Virus record (IMG/VR): IMGVR_UViG_3300012943_000002
Span: 36,718 to 100,717 of that record
DNA: 64,000 bases
Reading direction: 5' to 3' (one strand)
Origin: a virus
A program made the translations under genes and the position numbers. The notes beneath the pieces are model-generated. The model did not search any database, was not told where the DNA came from, and was given only the letters and a program-made list of their open reading frames with translations. Of the stretch, positions 2,962 through 54,027 are shown one piece after another; position 1 is the first letter of the stretch; each line of letters begins with the position of its first letter.

Positions 2962-5900
2962 ATGGGAAAGAGTAAAAGAGAAACTTTACAACCTGTAGAT
3001 TTACTAGGAGATATATTTAATAATGTTAAATCTTCACCAATGTCTTCATTAGAGAAATCAAATAATCCTGATTTTTCTTCTGATTATAATTTTGATCCAT
3101 CTAATAAATATTATGAATATCTGGATAATCCTAGTCCATTTGATACTAATATAGATAAAATATCTTCTGAGAAACAAAGTACTTTAACTAAATTAGGTAG
3201 AGGTACAGAACAGTTTGGAGCTAATGTTCTATCTTCTTTTGGTCAGGGATTAGCTAATACATTTGATTTAGTTTCCAATTTTGATACAGCAAAAAGTTTA
3301 TTAAATGGAGAAGATACAAATTTTGAATCATCTTTTTTGGGTATTACTAATAGAGATATGCAGAATTGGGCTAATGGTGTAGCTGAGAGAAATTAAATAT
3401 TTGAAAAAGACCCAAATTCAGTTAATCTAAGTGATCCTGCATGGTGGTCAAAGCAATGGGCTAGCTTAGGTACTAGTTTAGGTATGGGAGTAGAAGCTCT
3501 AGCAGAAACAGCAGCTATAGAATATGCTACTGGAGGTATGGGAACAGCAGCAGCTATTACTAGATTAGGTAAAGTAATTAAAAGTATAGGCACAGGAGCA
3601 GAAGGAGCAGCTAAACTTAATGAAGCTTTTGAAGCAGCTAAAGGATTAAAAAGCGCAGCTACTATATTTGGTGTAATGAATAGACTTAATGAGTCTAAAA
3701 TGGAAGGAATGCAGAATTATGACCAAATATACCAATCATTAAGTGATCCTAATCAAACTGGAGGTAAAGTATTTACAGAAGAAGAAAAGAAACATTTAGC
3801 CAGTGAAGGAGCTAAGTTAGATTATAAATGGAATCTAGCTCTGTTACCACTTGATATATTGTCCTATAGAACTATGGTGTTTAATCCTATAAGTGGTTCT
3901 GCTACTAATTGGGTAGAAAGAGGATTAGAGGGTATAGCAGGAGTATTTGGTAAAAGTAAATTAGGTAGAGCTGCTGGATGGACAGTAGATAAACTAATAG
4001 GAGCTAATATAGAAGGATTAGAAGAAGGTGTACAACAAGTAGCTCAAGATGAAGGACAGCATTATGCTAATGTACTAGGAGGAATGGATGATGGTAATAA
4101 TTTCATGCAGAGACTAGGTAAATCAACTAAGTCAGATGATTTTTGGAATAGTTATATAGGAGGTGTACTTGCTGCTCCAGTATTAGGAGTTGGTATGAAC
4201 ATGATTAATAGAATTACTACTGGTAATAGAGTAGGGAAGATGAATGCTATTAATAAGAATTATGTGAAGGAAGCAGGTATGATGAATGCAGGTATGCAAG
4301 ACAAAATATCTGAGTTAGATAAAGCTGGAAAAGTACAAGAAGCAGCACAGTCAAGAAGAGTATACAATGCTTTAGATACCCTTTCTAGAATACATTCAGA
4401 TGAAGAATTAGACAAAAATACAGCTTATACTAGTAGATTGAATTTTCTAGAAGCTACTCTAGGAGAACTTAATGAGGGTAAGACTACTTCTTTACAAGAT
4501 ACAGGATTTTTTAATATTACTAAAGAAGATAATCCAGATACAGTAGAGATTAACAAGGAGTCCTTTAAAAATTATATTGATGATACTAAACTAATGAAGT
4601 CAATATATGATAATGTAAAAGGAAAATATAATAAAAATTTCGTTCCTGCTATAACTTATGACCATTTCATGCTTAATAGAATGCAAAATGAGTTAGCAGA
4701 TTCTAATGTAGAAGTATTAGCCAATAAAAATAAACTAGCAGAATACAATCAATTATCTCCAAGTGGTAAACAAATACATGATATTGATTATGAATTACAA
4801 GCTTCTAAATTAGAACAAGATAGATTAAGTAGATTATATAAAGCAACTGTTGATGATAGAGAAAAAGAAAATATAAGCAAACTAATTGATAATAATGAAA
4901 ATAAAAGGTCTGAATTATCTACTAGATTAGCAGAGGTACAAGCAGATGAGAATTATAATGCAAAAGATAAAGAAACAGATAATGATATACTAAGAGCTAG
5001 AATAGGTGGTAATACTGATTCTGAACTTAATACAGAGTATCTTCAATCTTTATACAATAAAGAGAATCTAGAAAATTCCATAGCCTTAAAGAGAAAAAAT
5101 ATTGGTCTGTGGAGTAATCCTGAATATATAAAGGATAAGACTAAACAGGCTATAAAACATGCTAAAACTGTAGATCAAGTAAAAAATAATGTTGAAGCTC
5201 CTATTAAGAATAAAAAAGGTAAAGTAGCAAAACCTACTGCTGATATAGTAGAAGCAGCTAAACAAAAGGAAGTAGAGATAAGTGCTAGTGCAGATAGAAG
5301 TAATGAAGTAGCACAGAAATTAGGAGATGCCAGAGTAGATGATGAAGAAAGTAATTTTCTTGCAGATACTATAATACAAAATGCTAATAATAATGTAATA
5401 GATGGTAACTCTAGTTTAGGAGATGATGATACTGATTACCAAACTCCTATACAGACTGATAGTGCTTCTATACCTGATGTATTTGGAGAAAAAGTATTTC
5501 AATTAGCTCCTGTAGTTTACGATTTTAATAGTTCTAGTCAGGAAGCTAAAGATAAAATAAAAGCTGGTGTAGCTGGATTATTAAATAAACTAGGAGGTAA
5601 AAATTCATTTGAAGACCTAGTAAGAGAGTTTGCTAAACTAAAAGGTCTAGAAAATACAGAGAATATATATGAGGCATTGAAATATGGATATAGAGGGAAT
5701 GGTAAAAGTTTATCAGATGAAGAAGCCAATCTTATACAAGATAAGATATTTGGTAATGTATATGCCGATGATATAATGACTGCTGCTAGTGATTTAATAG
5801 TAAACGATCCTAATAAATTGACTACAGCTACTAATGGAGTAACTGATGATATAGTAGAGAAACAAGGACAACCAGAAGGATTTGATAATAATAATCAACC

Positions 5901-30869: not shown

Positions 30870-31685
30870 TTAGTACAGTTTATGCAATCTTGTCTTTACT
30901 TGTTGTTTAACATCTTCTTGTGCTATAATATCTTCAATTTCTTCTGATTGCATACTTTGTTTTAATTTCTGTATCTTAAACTCGTAGTCAGTAGGCTTAA
31001 TATGTATTACTTTTTGATACTCTATTTGATCCTTATAGTTTATAGGGTTATAAATAATAGAGTCATCAAAACCAACAATCTTATTTTTCCACCTTCTAAC
31101 TATATTATTAGCATGTATAATCTGTTTAACCAATACTCCATAATCAAAAGACATATTACCTATTCTAAATTCAAGAGTATGATGTTCACCATTATATCTT
31201 ATCCAATTATAGCCGGTAAATATACCAATAGATATTTTCCTTTTATTATAAGTACCTCTATAATCCCAACTATCTAATTCTGTTAGTATCTCTTCTCCAA
31301 AATTATTATCTCTTTGTAATGCATCACTTAATTCTGTATATTTCACATCTGTACAATCTATATGATAGTGGATACCACTTTCCATATTTAATAAAGAATT
31401 ATTACCTAGATGATAGCATATATTATATAAGCAAATTAAACCATTTACTCCATTAGGTATTCTATATCTCTGTTCATAATTGCTTTGAGTACTATCCCAT
31501 ATTATATTTGGAATGTTTTTAAATACTAACTCATCATAAGTTTCTTTCTTATCACATTCTATTTCAAATCCAGTAGAGTATGGTAGGTATTCATTAGCTG
31601 TATTTATAATACTTTTATCTTTAATACCAAGTAAAACTAGAGGAGAAGTATATACTATCTCCTCTAGTTCTTTTTTACTTATCAT
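30870..31685 (-). CDS. Putative amidoligase (COOH-NH2 ligase / glutamine-synthetase-like fold)
   Basis: GFEIE ... E ... SGIHYHID ... TLEFR motif order. Confidence 0.7.
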   Translation of the reverse strand: MISKKELEEIVYTSPLVLLGIKDKSIINTANEYLPYSTGFEIECDKKETYDELVFKNIPNIIWDSTQSNYEQRYRIPNGVNGLICLYNICYHLGNNSLLNMESGIHYHIDCTDVKYTELSDALQRDNNFGEEILTELDSWDYRGTYNKRKISIGIFTGYNWIRYNGEHHTLEFRIGNMSFDYGVLVKQIIHANNIVRRWKNKIVGFDDSIIYNPINYKDQIEYQKVIHIKPTDYEFKIQKLKQSMQSEEIEDIIAQEDVKQQVKTRLHKLY

Positions 31686-42239: not shown

Positions 42240-44510
42240 TTAAAAATCTTCTAAAGGTAAAAACATATTTACTCCTCCTAGCATCCTTGTCTGTATATGC
42301 TGAGGACATTCTACATATCTAGCATCTGCTATATGTATACTTCTATACTTAGGATAATTCTTTACTTCCACTCCAAAATGCTTCAAGAGATTATACTTTT
42401 CATCATTAGGATTAAACATAGTTATTAATAAGGTACTTTCTTCTCCTAAGTTACCTGTATCTTTCACATCATCACTAGTAGGATATATAAATTCTCCTGC
42501 AAACTTTAGTCTTTCTACATTAACAATACCCCTATTACTGTGGCATATATTAATCATAGTAAATAAACATAGATTTCTCAGAATAGTAGAATATTCTAAC
42601 CACTTATCTATTTTCTGCTTCATAGTAAAGTTCCTTTCTTCTCCTACTTTACGAATATGATCTACAATTACGATAGTAAATAGCCTAGGATTATTTTCTT
42701 TATATCCTATTACTCTACTCTTCTTTGCTATCTTACCTGAATCATCTACAGCATCATAAGTTTCATGTACAAATTCTCCATTCTTTCTTGCATAAGCCAT
42801 TAAATGTTTATACATAACAGTAGGATTTTCTATCTGCTCTATATACTCTATCTTACCACTACTTATCTTTCTATTATTACTATCAAATTCTCCAAACATA
42901 GGTATTATTCTAGTAGTATAGATAATTTTAAGCATTTCTTCATGTTCTTTTGTTACCTGAATTATCTCAAAACTATCTACATCTATTCTATGTAGTAATT
43001 TTCCTTCTAAGTAATCCTGACACATTTCATATACCTTATCTTTATATGTAATAGTATAAACTCCAAAATCATGTGCCATAAAGAAAGCAGCTACTTTATA
43101 TTCCTTACTTACTCTATCTATCTCAAAAGAATAACATATCCAGTTAATATCATCTAACCTGTTTTCTTTTAACATTTGTAAATATGGAGATATAATATAA
43201 CAGAAATCTGCCATCGTAGTATTATGAGTAACTGTAAAATCTTCTAAATAAAACCTTCTATCTTCGTTCTCCAATGTAAATCCATAATAAATATCCACTT
43301 TGTCTTTAACTATAGTTAACTTACTATTATAATTCTTAATTAGGGACTTTGCTTTCTTTCTTTGAATCTTTACTGGAATCCTAGCTACATTCCCTTTAAT
43401 TCTTATCCTATAGACTTTGCATTTATAGTAACTACCGTCTTTCCTTTTCATACTAGCTATTTTGTCACTTATAATAGTATTAAATCCTAGACTATTAGCT
43501 AGTAATATAATATCAGTAGCTAGTTGTTTACTTTTTTGTGTAATTTCGTAAGAAGTAAGGTTGTGAATTAAATTACCATCACTATCTATAAGACCTGCTA
43601 ACAAACTTAACCTAATATCCTCACTATTATTAATATAATCTTTAGGTATATGTTTATTATACAATACTCCTACCTTTGATAATATACTAATAATAGGTAA
43701 ACTAGCTTGGAACCTCTCTACTCTATTTCCGTCTTTTTCATAAAAACCTTGCTTTACTATTGCTCTAGATAAATATTCTGGTAATACACCTATAACTTTT
43801 GCTATTTTACTTAAACTTTCATATTTAGTAGTAATGTTATTTACAGTTAGAGTACATTCTTTTCTAGATTTCAAGCTATATTCAATACTACCAGTACTTC
43901 TTAGTTTAAATATATATCCATTCTGAATACTATATTCATTTAACCATCTAATTACTTCCTCATCTGTAGTAGTTATACTGCCATCTGCTGAAGCTCCATC
44001 TCCTAACCATATACCTAAAAAATAAGGGTCTAATGGTACAGATACTTTCTGTTTAATAATAGCAGACTTATATCCGTAACTTTGTCTCGTTCTTTCCCTC
44101 CAAGGGAGGTTTAAAAAGTCTAATAGAGATATATTATGTACTTTATCTGTATTGCTTTTAATACTAAGTATATGAGATTCATTGACTCTATATGACATAG
44201 CTTTAGTTTGATTTACCCAATACATCATTTCCTCTCCTGTAGTAGTAGATATAACTTTATTTGGCTTTCCATCTAATCCTAGTAAAATATCTCCTACAAC
44301 TAACTCTTCGACTTTTTTTAGAGTCAGGTCATACATTACTACTTTAGTACCTAAACCTAAACATTTACCTACTTTCTGAGCAGCAACTAAACCTATACTA
44401 GTCTTCTTTTGGATTCCTCTGGTAGCCATATCTAAAGCTGTTATACCAGTAGTTAAACCAGCATTTCTACCTGCTTTACCTTCCTTAAATACTGTTATAA
44501 AATTACTCAT
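42240..44510 (-). CDS. dnaB: DnaB-like replicative helicase containing an intein
   Basis: AAQKVGK|intein|TT Walker A, YSFEI, IVIVDHI, HSNR, DVKDTG. Confidence 0.88.
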   Translation of the reverse strand: MSNFITVFKEGKAGRNAGLTTGITALDMATRGIQKKTSIGLVAAQKVGKCLGLGTKVVMYDLTLKKVEELVVGDILLGLDGKPNKVISTTTGEEMMYWVNQTKAMSYRVNESHILSIKSNTDKVHNISLLDFLNLPWRERTRQSYGYKSAIIKQKVSVPLDPYFLGIWLGDGASADGSITTTDEEVIRWLNEYSIQNGYIFKLRSTGSIEYSLKSRKECTLTVNNITTKYESLSKIAKVIGVLPEYLSRAIVKQGFYEKDGNRVERFQASLPIISILSKVGVLYNKHIPKDYINNSEDIRLSLLAGLIDSDGNLIHNLTSYEITQKSKQLATDIILLANSLGFNTIISDKIASMKRKDGSYYKCKVYRIRIKGNVARIPVKIQRKKAKSLIKNYNSKLTIVKDKVDIYYGFTLENEDRRFYLEDFTVTHNTTMADFCYIISPYLQMLKENRLDDINWICYSFEIDRVSKEYKVAAFFMAHDFGVYTITYKDKVYEMCQDYLEGKLLHRIDVDSFEIIQVTKEHEEMLKIIYTTRIIPMFGEFDSNNRKISSGKIEYIEQIENPTVMYKHLMAYARKNGEFVHETYDAVDDSGKIAKKSRVIGYKENNPRLFTIVIVDHIRKVGEERNFTMKQKIDKWLEYSTILRNLCLFTMINICHSNRGIVNVERLKFAGEFIYPTSDDVKDTGNLGEESTLLITMFNPNDEKYNLLKHFGVEVKNYPKYRSIHIADARYVECPQHIQTRMLGGVNMFLPLEDF
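43221..44363 (-). mobile_element. Intein (381 aa) with LAGLIDADG homing endonuclease
   Basis: Starts CLGLGTKV, ends YYGFTL...VTHN/T; LGIWLGDG and LAGLIDSDG motifs; inserted in Walker A after GK. Confidence 0.95.
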
Positions 44511-47315: not shown

Positions 47316-49328
47316 TTAATGTATTGCAGCATAGTTATTTCCAAACTCTGTACTTATGCCTAGTTTAATATTTAATTTTAATACTTCATTTACCTTATTA
47401 ATGGCATTAGTAAGTATCTGTTTAGTTTTCTCTTGTTCTGTCTTTAATATATCTCCTACATGCTCATCATGATATTGCATACATATTTTATATCCTTGTT
47501 CCCTACAATATTTAGTCCACATATCAAAACAGTATACTCCTGTACCCTGATTAAGAGTTGAAAATATATCTTTAAAATATCTTAGACTATAATAAAACTG
47601 GGAAACTGGATTATAAAGCCATATACTTTGTACCTTACCCATGAATTTCATTAGTGTATCTCCTTTTAATTTTAGTACATCTTCTCCTAAAAACTCTTTT
47701 ATCACTCCATTTCTAAATATGATCCTAACTATACTATTATTAGCTACTTCTTTTACAGCTTTATTTCTATCCCAATATGTTTTATGAAATAGATTACCCT
47801 CTTCAAGTGGAACATTAGCAGTAATAGCTATTTTTGGTCCACCTGCACCATATACAGCAGCAAAATTCGTCTTCTTAGCTTTAAGTCTAACACCTTTAAT
47901 CTTCTTATATTTTTCCCAATTTTCTGGACTAGTTGTTTCCTTATTAAGTTCTTTATAAAAAGTTACCTCTTCCTTAGTAAGTAGACCTGCTCTAACTGCT
48001 ATATCTAAATGAGGATCAAATCCTTCCTGCATCATTTCCTTTACATAAATAGGATCGTAGAAATACATATAATGTCTCTTAGTACTATCCTCTAAACCTG
48101 ACATATCTGAACCACATAATATATGGTCTTCATCTCTGGTTATTAGACACTCTCTAACCATCTCCCAATACTTCTTAGGTATACCAGCTAAATTAGCTAT
48201 AGGTTTCCTATGTTGCATTCTGAGAGTATTAGTCAGTCCATTAATCTCTGCTTTAAGAAAGTTATCACTATCTATAGACTCTAGAAATCCTTTTAGTGTA
48301 CTTATCCTACTTCTAATCAGGAATAGACTATCTAATTCTTCTAATCTAGGTTCTTTCTCAAACAAAGCTTTTACACTATCACATAATCCCTCATCATTAT
48401 CATCACTCTGTAGTTGTGGTACTTTTCTAGGTGGAGTATCTTTACTATAAGGAGTATTTTTATCTTTTACATACTTAAATGTAGTAGGTATCCATCCCAA
48501 TGAAAATAACCATTCTTTCAATTGAGGATGAGAGCCGGGATTACCCGGTTCTATTTTATCCACTAATTTTAAAGTACCATTATGATATTCTGGCAATCCC
48601 ATCTCTTTAAGCAACTTGAACCAATCCTCTCCCAACTTAGAGACAGAGCCGTCCTTCTTTAGCATAACTTTTGGTCTATCCTTTTTCTTATAAGTTATGT
48701 GCTTAGGCATTATAGCTGATAGCTTGACTATTTTCTCATCATATAAACCTGATAAAATTTTTAAGTTACTTTCACATTTATCCTTATCTAATTTCCACTT
48801 AACTTCTTCCTGCTCTCTTGCACAATCAAGTTTAAATGAAATATATCTAAGAAATCTATCTAAAGCATTGTTATCATTATATATTTTCTTTAAGTAGATA
48901 AGCTCTTCATCCCATAGTTTTACGTTTATTCTTACATCCTCACTACATCTAAATACATAATCTTCTACTGGTAAATTATGCCAATCATTAATAGGTGGTT
49001 TTTGTATACCAAATTCATATCCCCATTCATCTAAACCATGTACAAGTCTCTCAGGATATAGATACCAAGATACTCCTAAAGTATCTATTAGCCTAGCAGT
49101 TACTTTAATATTTAATATCTTTTCTATTACTGGAATATCATAAGTAACTATTTTATGCCCTATTAGTATATGTTCACCTAATAGGAAATCAATCATATCC
49201 TTATAGTTTATTAGCTTACCTTCCTTTATTAATACACCATTATCAAATTTTCTATAACATAAACAGTGTATTTTAGTAACTCCTTCTATTAAACCATCAG
49301 CTTCCAAATCAAATACACTATATATCAT
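47316..49328 (-). CDS. polA: Family A DNA polymerase with 3'-5' exonuclease (T7-like)
   Basis: FDLEAD, GH...YD; motif A GSDMSGLE, motif B RLKAKKTNFAAVYGAG, motif C YHDE. Confidence 0.95.
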   Translation of the reverse strand: MIYSVFDLEADGLIEGVTKIHCLCYRKFDNGVLIKEGKLINYKDMIDFLLGEHILIGHKIVTYDIPVIEKILNIKVTARLIDTLGVSWYLYPERLVHGLDEWGYEFGIQKPPINDWHNLPVEDYVFRCSEDVRINVKLWDEELIYLKKIYNDNNALDRFLRYISFKLDCAREQEEVKWKLDKDKCESNLKILSGLYDEKIVKLSAIMPKHITYKKKDRPKVMLKKDGSVSKLGEDWFKLLKEMGLPEYHNGTLKLVDKIEPGNPGSHPQLKEWLFSLGWIPTTFKYVKDKNTPYSKDTPPRKVPQLQSDDNDEGLCDSVKALFEKEPRLEELDSLFLIRSRISTLKGFLESIDSDNFLKAEINGLTNTLRMQHRKPIANLAGIPKKYWEMVRECLITRDEDHILCGSDMSGLEDSTKRHYMYFYDPIYVKEMMQEGFDPHLDIAVRAGLLTKEEVTFYKELNKETTSPENWEKYKKIKGVRLKAKKTNFAAVYGAGGPKIAITANVPLEEGNLFHKTYWDRNKAVKEVANNSIVRIIFRNGVIKEFLGEDVLKLKGDTLMKFMGKVQSIWLYNPVSQFYYSLRYFKDIFSTLNQGTGVYCFDMWTKYCREQGYKICMQYHDEHVGDILKTEQEKTKQILTNAINKVNEVLKLNIKLGISTEFGNNYAAIH

Positions 49329-50029: not shown

Positions 50030-50139
50030 AATTTTTAGTTTTAATTATTATTAAATATGGTACATCTACACTAAACCACAATACTTATAGAAATAAGTAT
50101 TATTACGAGAAAGCTATTAACAGTTACTGTAGATGTTTG

Positions 50140-50279
50140 TAGGGGGAAGTAGACTCGAACTACTGACCCTTTTATACTCAAATCTTTGCGATGTATGCTA
50201 CTTTTCTAGTCTTTTCACATGCCAAATTACCGGATTCATATTGTATAATAGTTGCTCTAGCCAACTGAGCTATCCCCCT
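50140..50279 (-). ncRNA. tRNA-like RNA (140 nt) with anticodon arm replaced by a long irregular hairpin
   Basis: Acceptor AGGGGGA/TCCCCCT, TA, D-arm GCTC-AGTTGGCTA-GAGC, T-arm AGTAG-TTCGAGT-CTACT. Confidence 0.8.
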
Positions 50280-50348
50280 ATAGAGTTCCCCTGTAGAGAA
50301 CAGGAGAACTTCCCTCAAAACTAACTGCTTAAAGAACAGAGTTTATAA

Positions 50349-52936: not shown

Positions 52937-53584
52937 TTATCCAATAGTTTGTCCCAATAATGCAGAAGCACCTTGCAATTCTAATGCAATCTCAGGTGAC
53001 AAATATACATCATTAACATCTCTTGCATCTACATCTGCATGTGGAGTTTTCCAATAGAAAGTTCTACGATATTGAGGATTACCATTAGCATCCTTAATTA
53101 TCTTATTTGCAGTACCCTCAGCGACAGTTTTGTTGTTTTCAGGAAAACGAACTACCTGTGCATTTGCATAATGGTCTTTATCTCTAAGTCCTTGGTTAAT
53201 TGCATACTGTTGATTTTCATCAATAATAGGAGAACTCTTTAGAACTCTGTAGATTGTACTACCATTTGTACTGTCAGCAGCTATACGAGCTACAATCTCA
53301 GCTTCTGACATGGTTTCTTTTACATCAACCCAAGCTACCCGGTTTTCTTCGCTTGTAAATTCACTTGCTTCAATTCCTGATTCTTCCGGTGTGAATAAAC
53401 TATTCTGCATATTGGATTCCAACTTAATAGTTGGATAAAATGACTTGGTTGTTACCTTCTGACGAAGTTCAACCCTCTTTGTACCTTTCTTCTGAAACTC
53501 TACTGTGGATATACCACTAAATGTTACAGCAGACTTAGATACTTCTTTTCTTACACCTGTTGGTGTAACAACGTTTGTGTCCAT
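52937..53584 (-). CDS. Hypothetical protein
   Basis: 215-aa ORF followed by a hairpin at ~52871-52906. Confidence 0.7.
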   Translation of the reverse strand: MDTNVVTPTGVRKEVSKSAVTFSGISTVEFQKKGTKRVELRQKVTTKSFYPTIKLESNMQNSLFTPEESGIEASEFTSEENRVAWVDVKETMSEAEIVARIAADSTNGSTIYRVLKSSPIIDENQQYAINQGLRDKDHYANAQVVRFPENNKTVAEGTANKIIKDANGNPQYRRTFYWKTPHADVDARDVNDVYLSPEIALELQGASALLGQTIG

Positions 53585-53636: not shown

Positions 53637-53720
53637 AATAGCATAGTGGACTCGAACCACTTCCTTTAGAGTACTAGCGCTATTGTTGACTCTAATGCTC
53701 TACTAATGAGCTAATGCTAT
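53637..53720 (-). ncRNA. tRNA-like RNA (84 nt) with enlarged, non-canonical anticodon arm
   Basis: Acceptor ATAGCAT/ATGCTAT, TA, D-arm GCTC-ATTAGTA-GAGC, 7-bp stem TTAGAGT/ACTCTAA closing 16 nt, T-arm AGTGG-TTCGAGT-CCACT. Confidence 0.8.
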
Positions 53721-53793
53721 ATAAAAACAGCCAATTTCGTAGCACATTCAAAAACTACTAGTTGGCTGTTGTTGTTATTAATCACTACTATTT

Positions 53794-54027
53794 TTAATAA
53801 AGGATACTACCGTCTATATCCTCTTCTTGCTTCACTTCTACTTGTGTTCCTCCTTTTATATCAGCTAATGCATTCAAATCATACATTGCTATAAATACTG
53901 CATCTGGAGTGGTATCTGTTAACCATTTACCATAAGCAGCTACTATATCTTTAGCAGTATAATTCTTACCTTTACTCATGTGATCTTTTTCATGCTCTTT
54001 AAAGACTATGTGATAAACTCTTTTCAT
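53794..54027 (-). CDS. Hypothetical protein
   Basis: ORF. Confidence 0.6.
   Translation of the reverse strand: MKRVYHIVFKEHEKDHMSKGKNYTAKDIVAAYGKWLTDTTPDAVFIAMYDLNALADIKGGTQVEVKQEEDIDGSILY

Follow-up and report, generated by a model that had tools for sequence, protein, structure and literature searches.

The window analyzed here, a 64,000-nt stretch covering bases 36718–100717 of the complete 100,717-bp virus record IMGVR_UViG_3300012943_000002 (direct terminal repeats, G+C content 30%), carries on its minus strand, at 53637–53720, an 84-nt gene in the shape of a transfer RNA (tRNA), in which a 30-nt arm stands in place of the anticodon stem-loop. We designate this gene, which includes the discriminator U at 53637, as E2. 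Judged from its sequence, E2 is a genuine tRNA-shaped RNA gene, probably non-decoding and expressed, and the view toward which we lean is that it is maintained for its shape. As to what the shape would serve, we tentatively put forward, by analogy with the t-elements of plant mitochondria, a processing signal at which RNase P and RNase Z of the host would cut.

A tRNA Body without an Anticodon Loop

The Rfam tRNA model RF00005, which has a gathering score of 29 bits, matches E2 at 51.1 bits (E = 5e-8 over the whole window), and its alignment places 20 nt where the seven anticodon-loop positions belong. The three body stems, acceptor (7 bp), D (4 bp), and T (5 bp), are all perfect, giving 16 of 16 standard pairs, and the minimum-free-energy (MFE) fold is a cloverleaf with a 7-bp stem and a 16-nt loop; in the Rfam alignment the first 5 bp of that stem occupy the normal position of the anticodon stem. 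The loop reads CAACAAUAGCGCUAGU and contains the palindrome UAGCGCUA. U8 and A9 link the acceptor to the D arm, A26 follows the D arm, the variable loop has 4 nt (AGGA), the discriminator is U, and CCA is not encoded.

By structure E2 therefore qualifies as a tRNA, with a cloverleaf body, a TTCRA T loop, and a score above the gathering threshold; as a decoder it fails, having no 5-bp stem that closes a 7-nt loop with U33 and a purine at 37. The D loop, AUUAGUA, has G19 and, in the Rfam alignment, an A at the position of the near-universal G18, so that the G18–G19 combination is incomplete. E2 has A3–U70 instead of G3.U70, no long variable arm, and no G-1, and the discriminator U together with the A1–U72 pair matches no anticodon-independent synthetase; its identity elements are unassignable.

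In its intron mode, ARAGORN reports exactly two tRNA-like genes in the genome, E2 and a second at 50139–50279, which we call E1 (table 1). In its default mode the program finds no tRNA in the window nor in the whole 100,717-bp genome, and neither its mode for transfer-messenger RNA (tmRNA) nor Rfam detects a tmRNA in this genome. We also built a body-only covariance model, R1, in which pairing was imposed on the acceptor, D, and T stems and none on the anticodon arm; E2 was in its training set and E1 was not. R1 was built on the cleaner subset of the units found; a MAFFT alignment of all units misplaced the divergent ones. Run over the whole window with filters off, R1 recovers E1 at 38.7 bits (E ~8e-7), and apart from E1 and E2 nothing in the window exceeds 16 bits. 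E1 has D-arm and T-arm strings in common with E2 and keeps all 16 body pairs intact; five of the seven acceptor pairs and the discriminator differ between the two. Both tRNA-like genes of this complete genome are altered at the same place, the anticodon arm, with no canonical tRNA alongside.

An earlier note on this DNA had described an 84-nt tRNA-like element lacking an anticodon loop at this place, with a fully paired acceptor and a 30-nt arm, had pointed to elbow strings shared with an element at 50140, and had seen no canonical tRNA in the window. All of the parts it described are present, on the minus strand; the fold bears out the arm with its palindromic loop, the recovery of E1 by a model not trained on it shows the resemblance to be real, and the absence of canonical tRNAs extends to the whole genome. 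E1 and E2 may be paralogs, or E2 may belong to one homologous family, and we treat both as candidate readings only. The 5' half of E1 contains a 25-nt match to tRNA-Ala genes of Chitinophagaceae and Sediminibacterium, which fits a Bacteroidota host. E1 has G3–C70 in place of G3.U70, however, and no isotype could be assigned to it.

Table 1. Positions of E2, E1, and associated features, with their structural details and the basis of each call
Feature	Position	Strand	Basis or remark
E2, whole tRNA-shaped gene	53637..53720	-	Rfam RF00005, ARAGORN intron mode, MFE cloverleaf, structural scanner, model R1
E2 acceptor 5' strand, AUAGCAU	53714..53720	-	Pairs with 53638–53644, 7/7 Watson–Crick
E2 acceptor 3' strand, AUGCUAU	53638..53644	-	ARAGORN, fold
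E2 D arm, GCUC-AUUAGUA-GAGC, A at G18 position	53697..53711	-	Rfam alignment, structural scanner
E2 30-nt arm replacing the anticodon stem-loop, UUAGAGU/ACUCUAA (7 bp) and 16-nt loop (53673–53688)	53666..53695	-	Folding
E2 T arm, AGUGG-UUCGAGU-CCACU	53645..53661	-	Rfam, ARAGORN, structural scanner
Hairpin upstream of E2, 9-bp outer and 5-bp inner stem, then UUUUUAU	53726..53770	-	-17.2 kcal/mol, z = -3.3, 0/200 shuffles as good
E1, tRNA-shaped gene with 83-nt weakly folded arm for the anticodon arm	50140..50279	-	ARAGORN intron mode, R1
Hairpin upstream of E1, 13 bp, no U-run after it	50282..50313	-	-21.6 kcal/mol, z = -3.2
215-aa gene, PHROG 16309, function unassigned	52937..53584	-	Starts 52 nt downstream of E2
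Three short-arm units of the sister phage	L130:2206-2269, 3086-3157, 3548-3615		Also in L131, L200, L201, L213
tRNA-Arg(UCU) and tRNA-shaped paralog	L145:5685-5765 and 5822-5896; L147:3680-3752 and 3809-3883

Gene Setting and a Putative Processing Signal

E2 and E1 are both intergenic and co-directional with the neighboring genes, from which they are separated by 73 and 52 nt (E2) and by 69 and 263 nt (E1). A hairpin stands directly upstream of each, ending 5 nt before the first base of E2 and 2 nt before that of E1. When the 65 nt upstream were folded for each of nine elements of this genome and its relatives, a hairpin ending 2–5 nt before the first base was present in seven; compared with shuffled sequences, the hairpins of the first unit of the sister phage G003 (see below) and of a unit designated L145a reach z = -4.05 and -2.1, respectively, beside the values for E2 and E1 in table 1. 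From its modeled fold, the hairpin at 53726–53770 could be a terminator or a 3'-end stabilizer of the upstream 77-aa open reading frame (ORF; 53794–54027).

RNase P, RNase Z, and the CCA-adding enzyme recognize the stack of acceptor and T arm and the elbow formed by the D and T arms, and the anticodon arm is dispensable to them. We propose that E2 would be transcribed within a leftward transcript of the replication module and would fold into such a stack and elbow, to be recognized by these three enzymes of the host. RNase P would cut directly after the upstream hairpin, so that the upstream messenger RNA (mRNA) would keep a protective 3' stem-loop, and RNase Z would cut past the discriminator, setting the 5' end of the mRNA of the 215-aa gene. 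The anticodon arm, irrelevant to these enzymes, would be free to vary, which would be the reason why E1, E2, and the copies in relatives differ mainly in that arm. Given the intergenic co-directional site, the preceding hairpin, the regular spacing in the sister phage, and the conserved body parts, a processing signal is the most economical mechanism. The layout is that of a t-element: a tRNA-like fold, a noncanonical cloverleaf, and a conserved T arm, placed between co-directional genes in an arrangement that recurs in relatives. Any benefit of E2 to the phage we infer. That the phages of this clade, and probably many others, use hairpin-preceded anticodon-less tRNA shapes as punctuation for the cutting of polycistronic transcripts by RNase P and RNase Z is a wider proposal, and a more doubtful one.

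Consensus scans for sigma-70 promoters and for terminators were uninformative. The Bacteroidota -7 motif TAnnTTTG, of which an exact copy lies 36 nt upstream of E1, is mildly enriched (110 copies, 86 expected) and was not used.

tRNA-Shaped Genes in Related Phages

By protein similarity, the closest cultured relatives are the ~89-kb phages of Flavobacterium psychrophilum of the FpV4 group. The 215-aa protein encoded downstream of E2 has 61 homologs, many of them on contigs of ~95–102 kb; the closest (65–68% identity) come from Logan assemblies only. Scanning with the single sequence gave no relatives in viral contigs, and an alignment of the homologs then retrieved 39 viral and 17 metagenome loci. 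The slot upstream of these homologs is a hotspot for RNA genes, being occupied by tmRNA, tRNAs, or tRNA-like genes; in many members of the clade, the cultured FpV4 included, it holds a tmRNA. The FpV4 tmRNA is unannotated and lies at L169:5078-5492 (NC_041872.1 ~81947-82361, minus strand; Rfam RF00023, 58.2 bits) inside a 2.3-kb gap that has no annotated feature; at least 10 related viral contigs have a tmRNA in the corresponding place.

The closest relatives, the sister phages G003 and G004 (215-aa neighbor protein 54% identical; also seen as L200, L201, which is the G004 contig, and L213), carry three tRNA-shaped units in three consecutive intergenic gaps. Read from the sequence, their arms are stems capped by four-base loops (CUCUA-GUAA-UAGGG, CUAGCC-UUAC-GGCUAG, and UCUAC-CUAG-GUAGA); ARAGORN instead gives the second a 5-bp stem with a 6-nt loop, and no unit has a 7-nt anticodon loop. 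The first unit is found by R1 at 28.5 bits (E ~0.002), the second by ARAGORN and by R1 at 35.7 bits, and the third by the Rfam tRNA model at 46.9 bits. Each starts 7–10 nt past a stop codon and ends 35–36 nt short of the following ATG, itself part of a repeated GCATTTYGGCTNATGG motif. Tetraloop arms have no room for an anticodon and contain nothing to splice; they therefore cannot be introns, which favors shape over decoding. Variants of the sister phage at 98% identity are identical over the whole region and carry no information on constraint. The recurrence of CUAG in the arms was rejected as a signal, CTAG being common in the genome (422 copies, where a Markov model expects 539).

Three contigs, L145, L146, and L147, hold a canonical tRNA-Arg(UCU) beside a tRNA-shaped paralog with the same acceptor stem and a 17-nt loop, and ~3.9 kb downstream a 118-nt tRNA-shaped gene, mirroring the layout of E2 and E1. 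The loop of the L145 paralog contains the palindrome GUGCAC, and the arm of the L147 paralog is degenerate. Between L145 and L147, the paralogs have identical acceptor and T arms and differ by indels in the anticodon arm; the changes in the anticodon stem of the adjacent tRNA-Arg(UCU) are fully compensated. Further units comprise two adjacent ones sharing an acceptor stem (L208), one of 144 nt (G025), and those of L153 and L166. At L166:8600-8676 there is also a tRNA of normal size with the anticodon UCA, which reads UGA; ARAGORN labels it SeC, and it may act as an opal suppressor or be a tRNA-Trp of the code-4 type. At L185:1501-1622 and L190:1501-1621 (G036:31082-31203 and 31454-31574) lie two tRNAs whose anticodon loops are canonical (UAG and GAA) and whose variable regions span ~50 nt.

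By our reading, ~11 of the 17 distinct tRNA-shaped genes in the clade have no canonical anticodon loop. Their acceptor, D, and T stems are 98.5% paired, with double-sided changes in 15 of the 16 pairs, a count that speaks less strongly for maintenance of shape than it seems to, as the genes were picked up by tRNA models and aligned by fitting to the model, so that intact stems are partly guaranteed. It should be noted that the elements of the clade need not be homologous to one another. At three loci of ~60% identity, reached via the Dda-like helicase, there is no tRNA-like element nearby, and these genomes hold only an unrelated tRNA-Cys(GCA).

The earlier note had seen in E2 and E1 a family of anticodon-less shapes, and had argued from them for selection on shape rather than decoding. 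The first suggestion holds insofar as related phages carry such genes, with tetraloop-capped stems, oversized loops, or long hairpins for anticodon arms and with paired body stems; as to homology, E1 and E2 are candidate paralogs only. The second is strengthened by the unspliceable arms of the relatives, and for E2 it lacks an ortholog by which selection could be gauged.

Could the Arm Contain an Intron?

In intron mode, ARAGORN folds E2 into a 72-nt cloverleaf with the loop CU-AGU-AC, U33, and A37. E2 might accordingly be read as a decoding tRNA, for example Thr(AGU) or one with a CAU anticodon, from which a ~13-nt protein-dependent "enigmatic" intron is removed by host or as yet unnamed enzymes. 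Excision between positions 33 and 34 would leave both E1 and E2 with the anticodon AGU, the phage most often encodes threonine by ACU (56% of its Thr codons), ATA makes up 62% of its Ile codons, and the insertions of E1 and E2 both begin near a common ACAAUA. In some phage tRNAs of IMG/VR the insertion falls on the canonical 37/38 site and the anticodon is a sensible one (e.g., Tyr-GUA and His-GUG), and the Bacteroidota control genome, Bacteroides thetaiotaomicron, encodes RtcB. Introns in tRNA genes have been published, with no mechanism given, for the Lak phages of Prevotella, which belongs to the Bacteroidota (Devoto et al. 2019, PMC6784885).

We nevertheless regard this as a weak and unlikely alternative. 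The splice site is ambiguous: removal of any contiguous 13 nt from the 20-nt loop leaves AGU, CGU, CAU, or CAA. Excision at the canonical 37/38 site produces CAA (Leu) with C37 on a body with a short variable arm, which is not credible, and the solution of ARAGORN (Thr(agt), 13-nt intron) needs a noncanonical 31/32 junction and A34. An A at position 34 is rare in bacteria. All excisions from E1 likewise give A34 (AGU, ACU, or, at 37/38, ACA), and the ARAGORN call for E1 shifts between Thr(agt) and Ser(tga) according to which flanks are supplied. The two genes would be the same isoacceptor, yet they differ in five of seven acceptor pairs and in the discriminator. No bulge-helix-bulge was seen on inspection, the E2 stem being a continuous 7 bp with no 3-nt bulges, and Rfam detects no ribozyme or intron family in the inserts of 13 nt (E2) and 66 nt (E1). 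A group I intron was rejected for both genes, as it needs at least 200 nt and a catalytic core. The complete phage genome encodes no RtcB, Rnl-type ligase, or splicing endonuclease (no match to PF01974, PF01139, or PF09414), the viral and metagenome collections contain no insertion-free or length-variant allele, and the tetraloop arms of the sister phages leave nothing to splice. The removal of a 13-nt intron, which the earlier note had set against its own view, thus leads on paper to a 72-nt tRNA whose splice site, anticodon, and mechanism are all unconvincing.

Maintenance, Decay, or Mimicry

Several observations weigh against the view that E2 is maintained for its shape and serves in processing. 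Pattern searches for homologs or alleles of E2 returned 0 in viral contigs and 0 in metagenome contigs, and for selection on E2 itself there is no allele or ortholog to gauge it by; it is the context which speaks for a non-decoding reading. E2 could be of recent origin, by a single insertion. The U-run after its hairpin may mark a plain terminator that stops transcription before E2. Element-bearing gaps number two in this genome against three consecutive ones in the sister phage, and their spacing is less regular here. The missing G18 of E2 is a trait also expected of decay, as are the weak anticodon-stem region of E1, the extra base after its position 26, and its 83-nt arm, which folds at only -8.6 kcal/mol. 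The one sequencing run that contains the stretch, and its likely source, is a soil DNA metagenome, with no RNA run among those listed.

The same traits can be read as those of young pseudogenes, that is, tRNA genes that an insertion into the anticodon loop has inactivated and that have so far escaped decay and deletion. One indel suffices to make E2, the relatives have no homolog at its spot (tmRNA, tRNA-Cys, or tRNA-Arg being found there instead), the 83-nt insert of E1 is AU-rich and barely structured, and the arm of the L147 paralog is plainly degenerate. This reading also appears unlikely. Neither E1 nor E2 has lost any of its 16 body pairs, with the caveat that detection favors intact bodies; both tRNA-like genes of the genome would have been struck at the same place; and in the sister phage three of three units share the same kind of defect, with neat tetraloop-capped stems that do not look like debris. 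Phage genomes are compact, and the elements stand at regular positions behind a hairpin.

The shape that we take to be maintained in E2 as a processing signal could instead act in trans, as a tRNA mimic. It might lure or soak up host proteins that attach to or attack the tRNA body or the 3' end, for example defense toxins by which tRNAs are modified or cleaved, or it might be a scaffold that presents the palindromic 16-nt loop. The shape evidence is the same for both, the palindromes UAGCGCUA in E2 and GUGCAC in L145a could permit loop–loop pairing, and in other phage families the anticodon arm contains an inserted hairpin that is conserved and covaries. The loop, however, is not conserved, and the window contains no target and no site complementary to the 16-nt loop of E2. 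A hexamer palindrome in a loop of 13–16 nt is by our estimate not rare by chance (~15% each), no protein gene is associated with the element, and the regular spacing of stop codon, hairpin, element, and start codon would be left unexplained. We judge this reading quite improbable. Anticodon nucleases are understood to recognize the anticodon loop, which E2 lacks; the suggestion in the earlier note of a role against PrrC/RloC-type nucleases found no support. More generally, tRNA-targeting defenses and the tRNA-based countermeasures of phages are established (PMC7824862), and a search of the literature for tRNA-like decoys or insertions in phages turned up nothing that addresses them directly.

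Comparison with Known Systems

The t-elements of plant mitochondria are the closest analogs of the processing signal that we propose: cleavage by RNase P and RNase Z has been mapped there, it defines mRNA ends, and the released elements carry CCA-type tails (Forner et al. 2007, PMC1920247). Like E2, they are tRNA-like and non-decoding, have a noncanonical cloverleaf with a T arm of the GGTTCRANYCC type (GGTTCGAGTCC in E2), and adjoin protein genes in longer transcripts, which for E2 is a predicted transcript. Unlike them, E2 occurs in a bacteriophage and not in an organelle, has a complete canonical D arm, a perfect 7-bp acceptor, and an upstream hairpin, and is known here from sequence alone, whereas the ends of t-elements have been mapped.

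The "enigmatic" introns of Lak phage tRNA genes, predicted with an intron-aware finder and offered with no mechanism (Devoto et al. 2019, PMC6784885), resemble E2 in that the phages have Bacteroidota-type hosts, the genes are too long for bacterial tRNA finders and are recovered only in an intron or eukaryote setting, and it is the anticodon loop that is interrupted. They differ in that their anticodons can be assigned and that the boundaries of the insert are fixed by alleles which have it and alleles which lack it. E2 offers neither, and the sister phages of E2 have shortened arms that cannot be introns.

With the canonical tRNA (RF00005), E2 has the acceptor, D, variable, and T regions in common; it departs from it in the missing 7-nt anticodon loop, A18, and the unassignable identity elements. 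A tmRNA, which occupies the slot of E2 upstream of the 215-aa homolog in many relatives, also has a tRNA-like domain without an anticodon, but E2 has a 4-bp D stem, A3–U70 and not G3.U70, and neither an mRNA-like region nor pseudoknots. The T4 RNAs rnaC and rnaD (species 1 and 2) are likewise phage small RNAs with no assigned function, stable and encoded next to tRNA genes, and rnaC (139 nt) has a tRNA-type T arm; according to the T4 record they have no canonical D arm or cloverleaf, and the likeness to E2 is one of analogy only. New at the level of a clade is the picture of intact bodies whose anticodon arms are tetraloop-capped, oversized, or replaced and which stand in regular hairpin-plus-element modules between genes; organelle tRNA-like processing elements and insertion-bearing phage tRNA genes were known already.

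Were the punctuation reading true, these phages would provide the first example beyond organelles of tRNA punctuation or of a t-element system, and the frequent shortened, enlarged, or replaced anticodon arms in phage contigs would be explained. Helping with codon usage and countering tRNA-cleaving defenses are the roles commonly ascribed to phage tRNA genes; if a sizable fraction of these genes cannot decode and are processing signals or protein decoys, counts of phage tRNAs would be misleading, a layer of phage gene regulation would escape gene finders that skip such elements, and host RNase P and RNase Z would be host factors for phage gene expression. Were the intron reading true, it would imply a route of tRNA splicing not yet known in bacteria.

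Noncanonical Anticodon Arms in Phage Contigs at Large

We scanned IMG/VR with generic D-arm and T-arm strings; the counts given are among the matches listed and are lower bounds. Among the matches listed with a gap shorter than canonical there are at least 103 distinct sequences, at least 60 of them with a perfect acceptor stem; one example has the arm CUC-GCAA-GAG followed by a normal AGGUC variable loop. Among those with a longer gap there are long-variable-arm tRNAs and many structured insertions in the anticodon arm. Some of the insertion-bearing tRNAs form recurrent families with covarying inserted hairpins, and these stand inside ordinary arrays with canonical tRNAs, tmRNA, and GOLLD. 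Noncanonical anticodon arms on otherwise good tRNA bodies thus appear, from these sequences, to be common in phages.

One recurrent family has a short arm, CCGCGCCRGGAGG, too short for a 7-nt loop, on an acceptor stem of the form GCAGACG...CGTCTGC-ACCA, with CCA encoded in most copies. It occurs in more than 10 contigs (L219, L224, L244, L245, L263, L270, L281, L287, L295, and L299 among them), and a cultured, annotated example was not found. A second family has an insert of ~26 nt in the anticodon arm (...YU-NNN-GG-YRAA-GGRCC-AAAACGC...) and is found beside tmRNA and GOLLD in tRNA arrays (L101, L106, L029, L068, L077, L082, L088, L109, and L071); its small hairpin covaries (GGC/GCC and GGU/ACC), and a variable triplet (CAU, CAA, UAU, or CAC) stands at a possible anticodon place. 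In a third (L049, L051, and L089), the anticodon stem is followed by AAAC, a 5-bp hairpin with the loop CNUCGAAA, and UACCUAA before the stem closes, and the hairpin covaries across the three contigs (UCCGG/CCGGA, GAGGG/CCCUC, and GCAGG/CCUGC).

Other Features of the Genome

Among the proteins encoded by the genome are giant ORFs of 3913 and 1572 aa, a family A DNA polymerase, and helicases, one of them Dda-like. The polymerase ORF (670 aa, window 47316–49328, minus strand) matches the PHROG profile, which has 1445 positions, only at 674–1231; upstream of it lie E1 and two 90-aa ORFs, and the polymerase may be split or short of its N-terminal domain. The gene for the large terminase (window 42240–44510, minus strand) contains an intein with Hint and LAGLIDADG homing-endonuclease domains.

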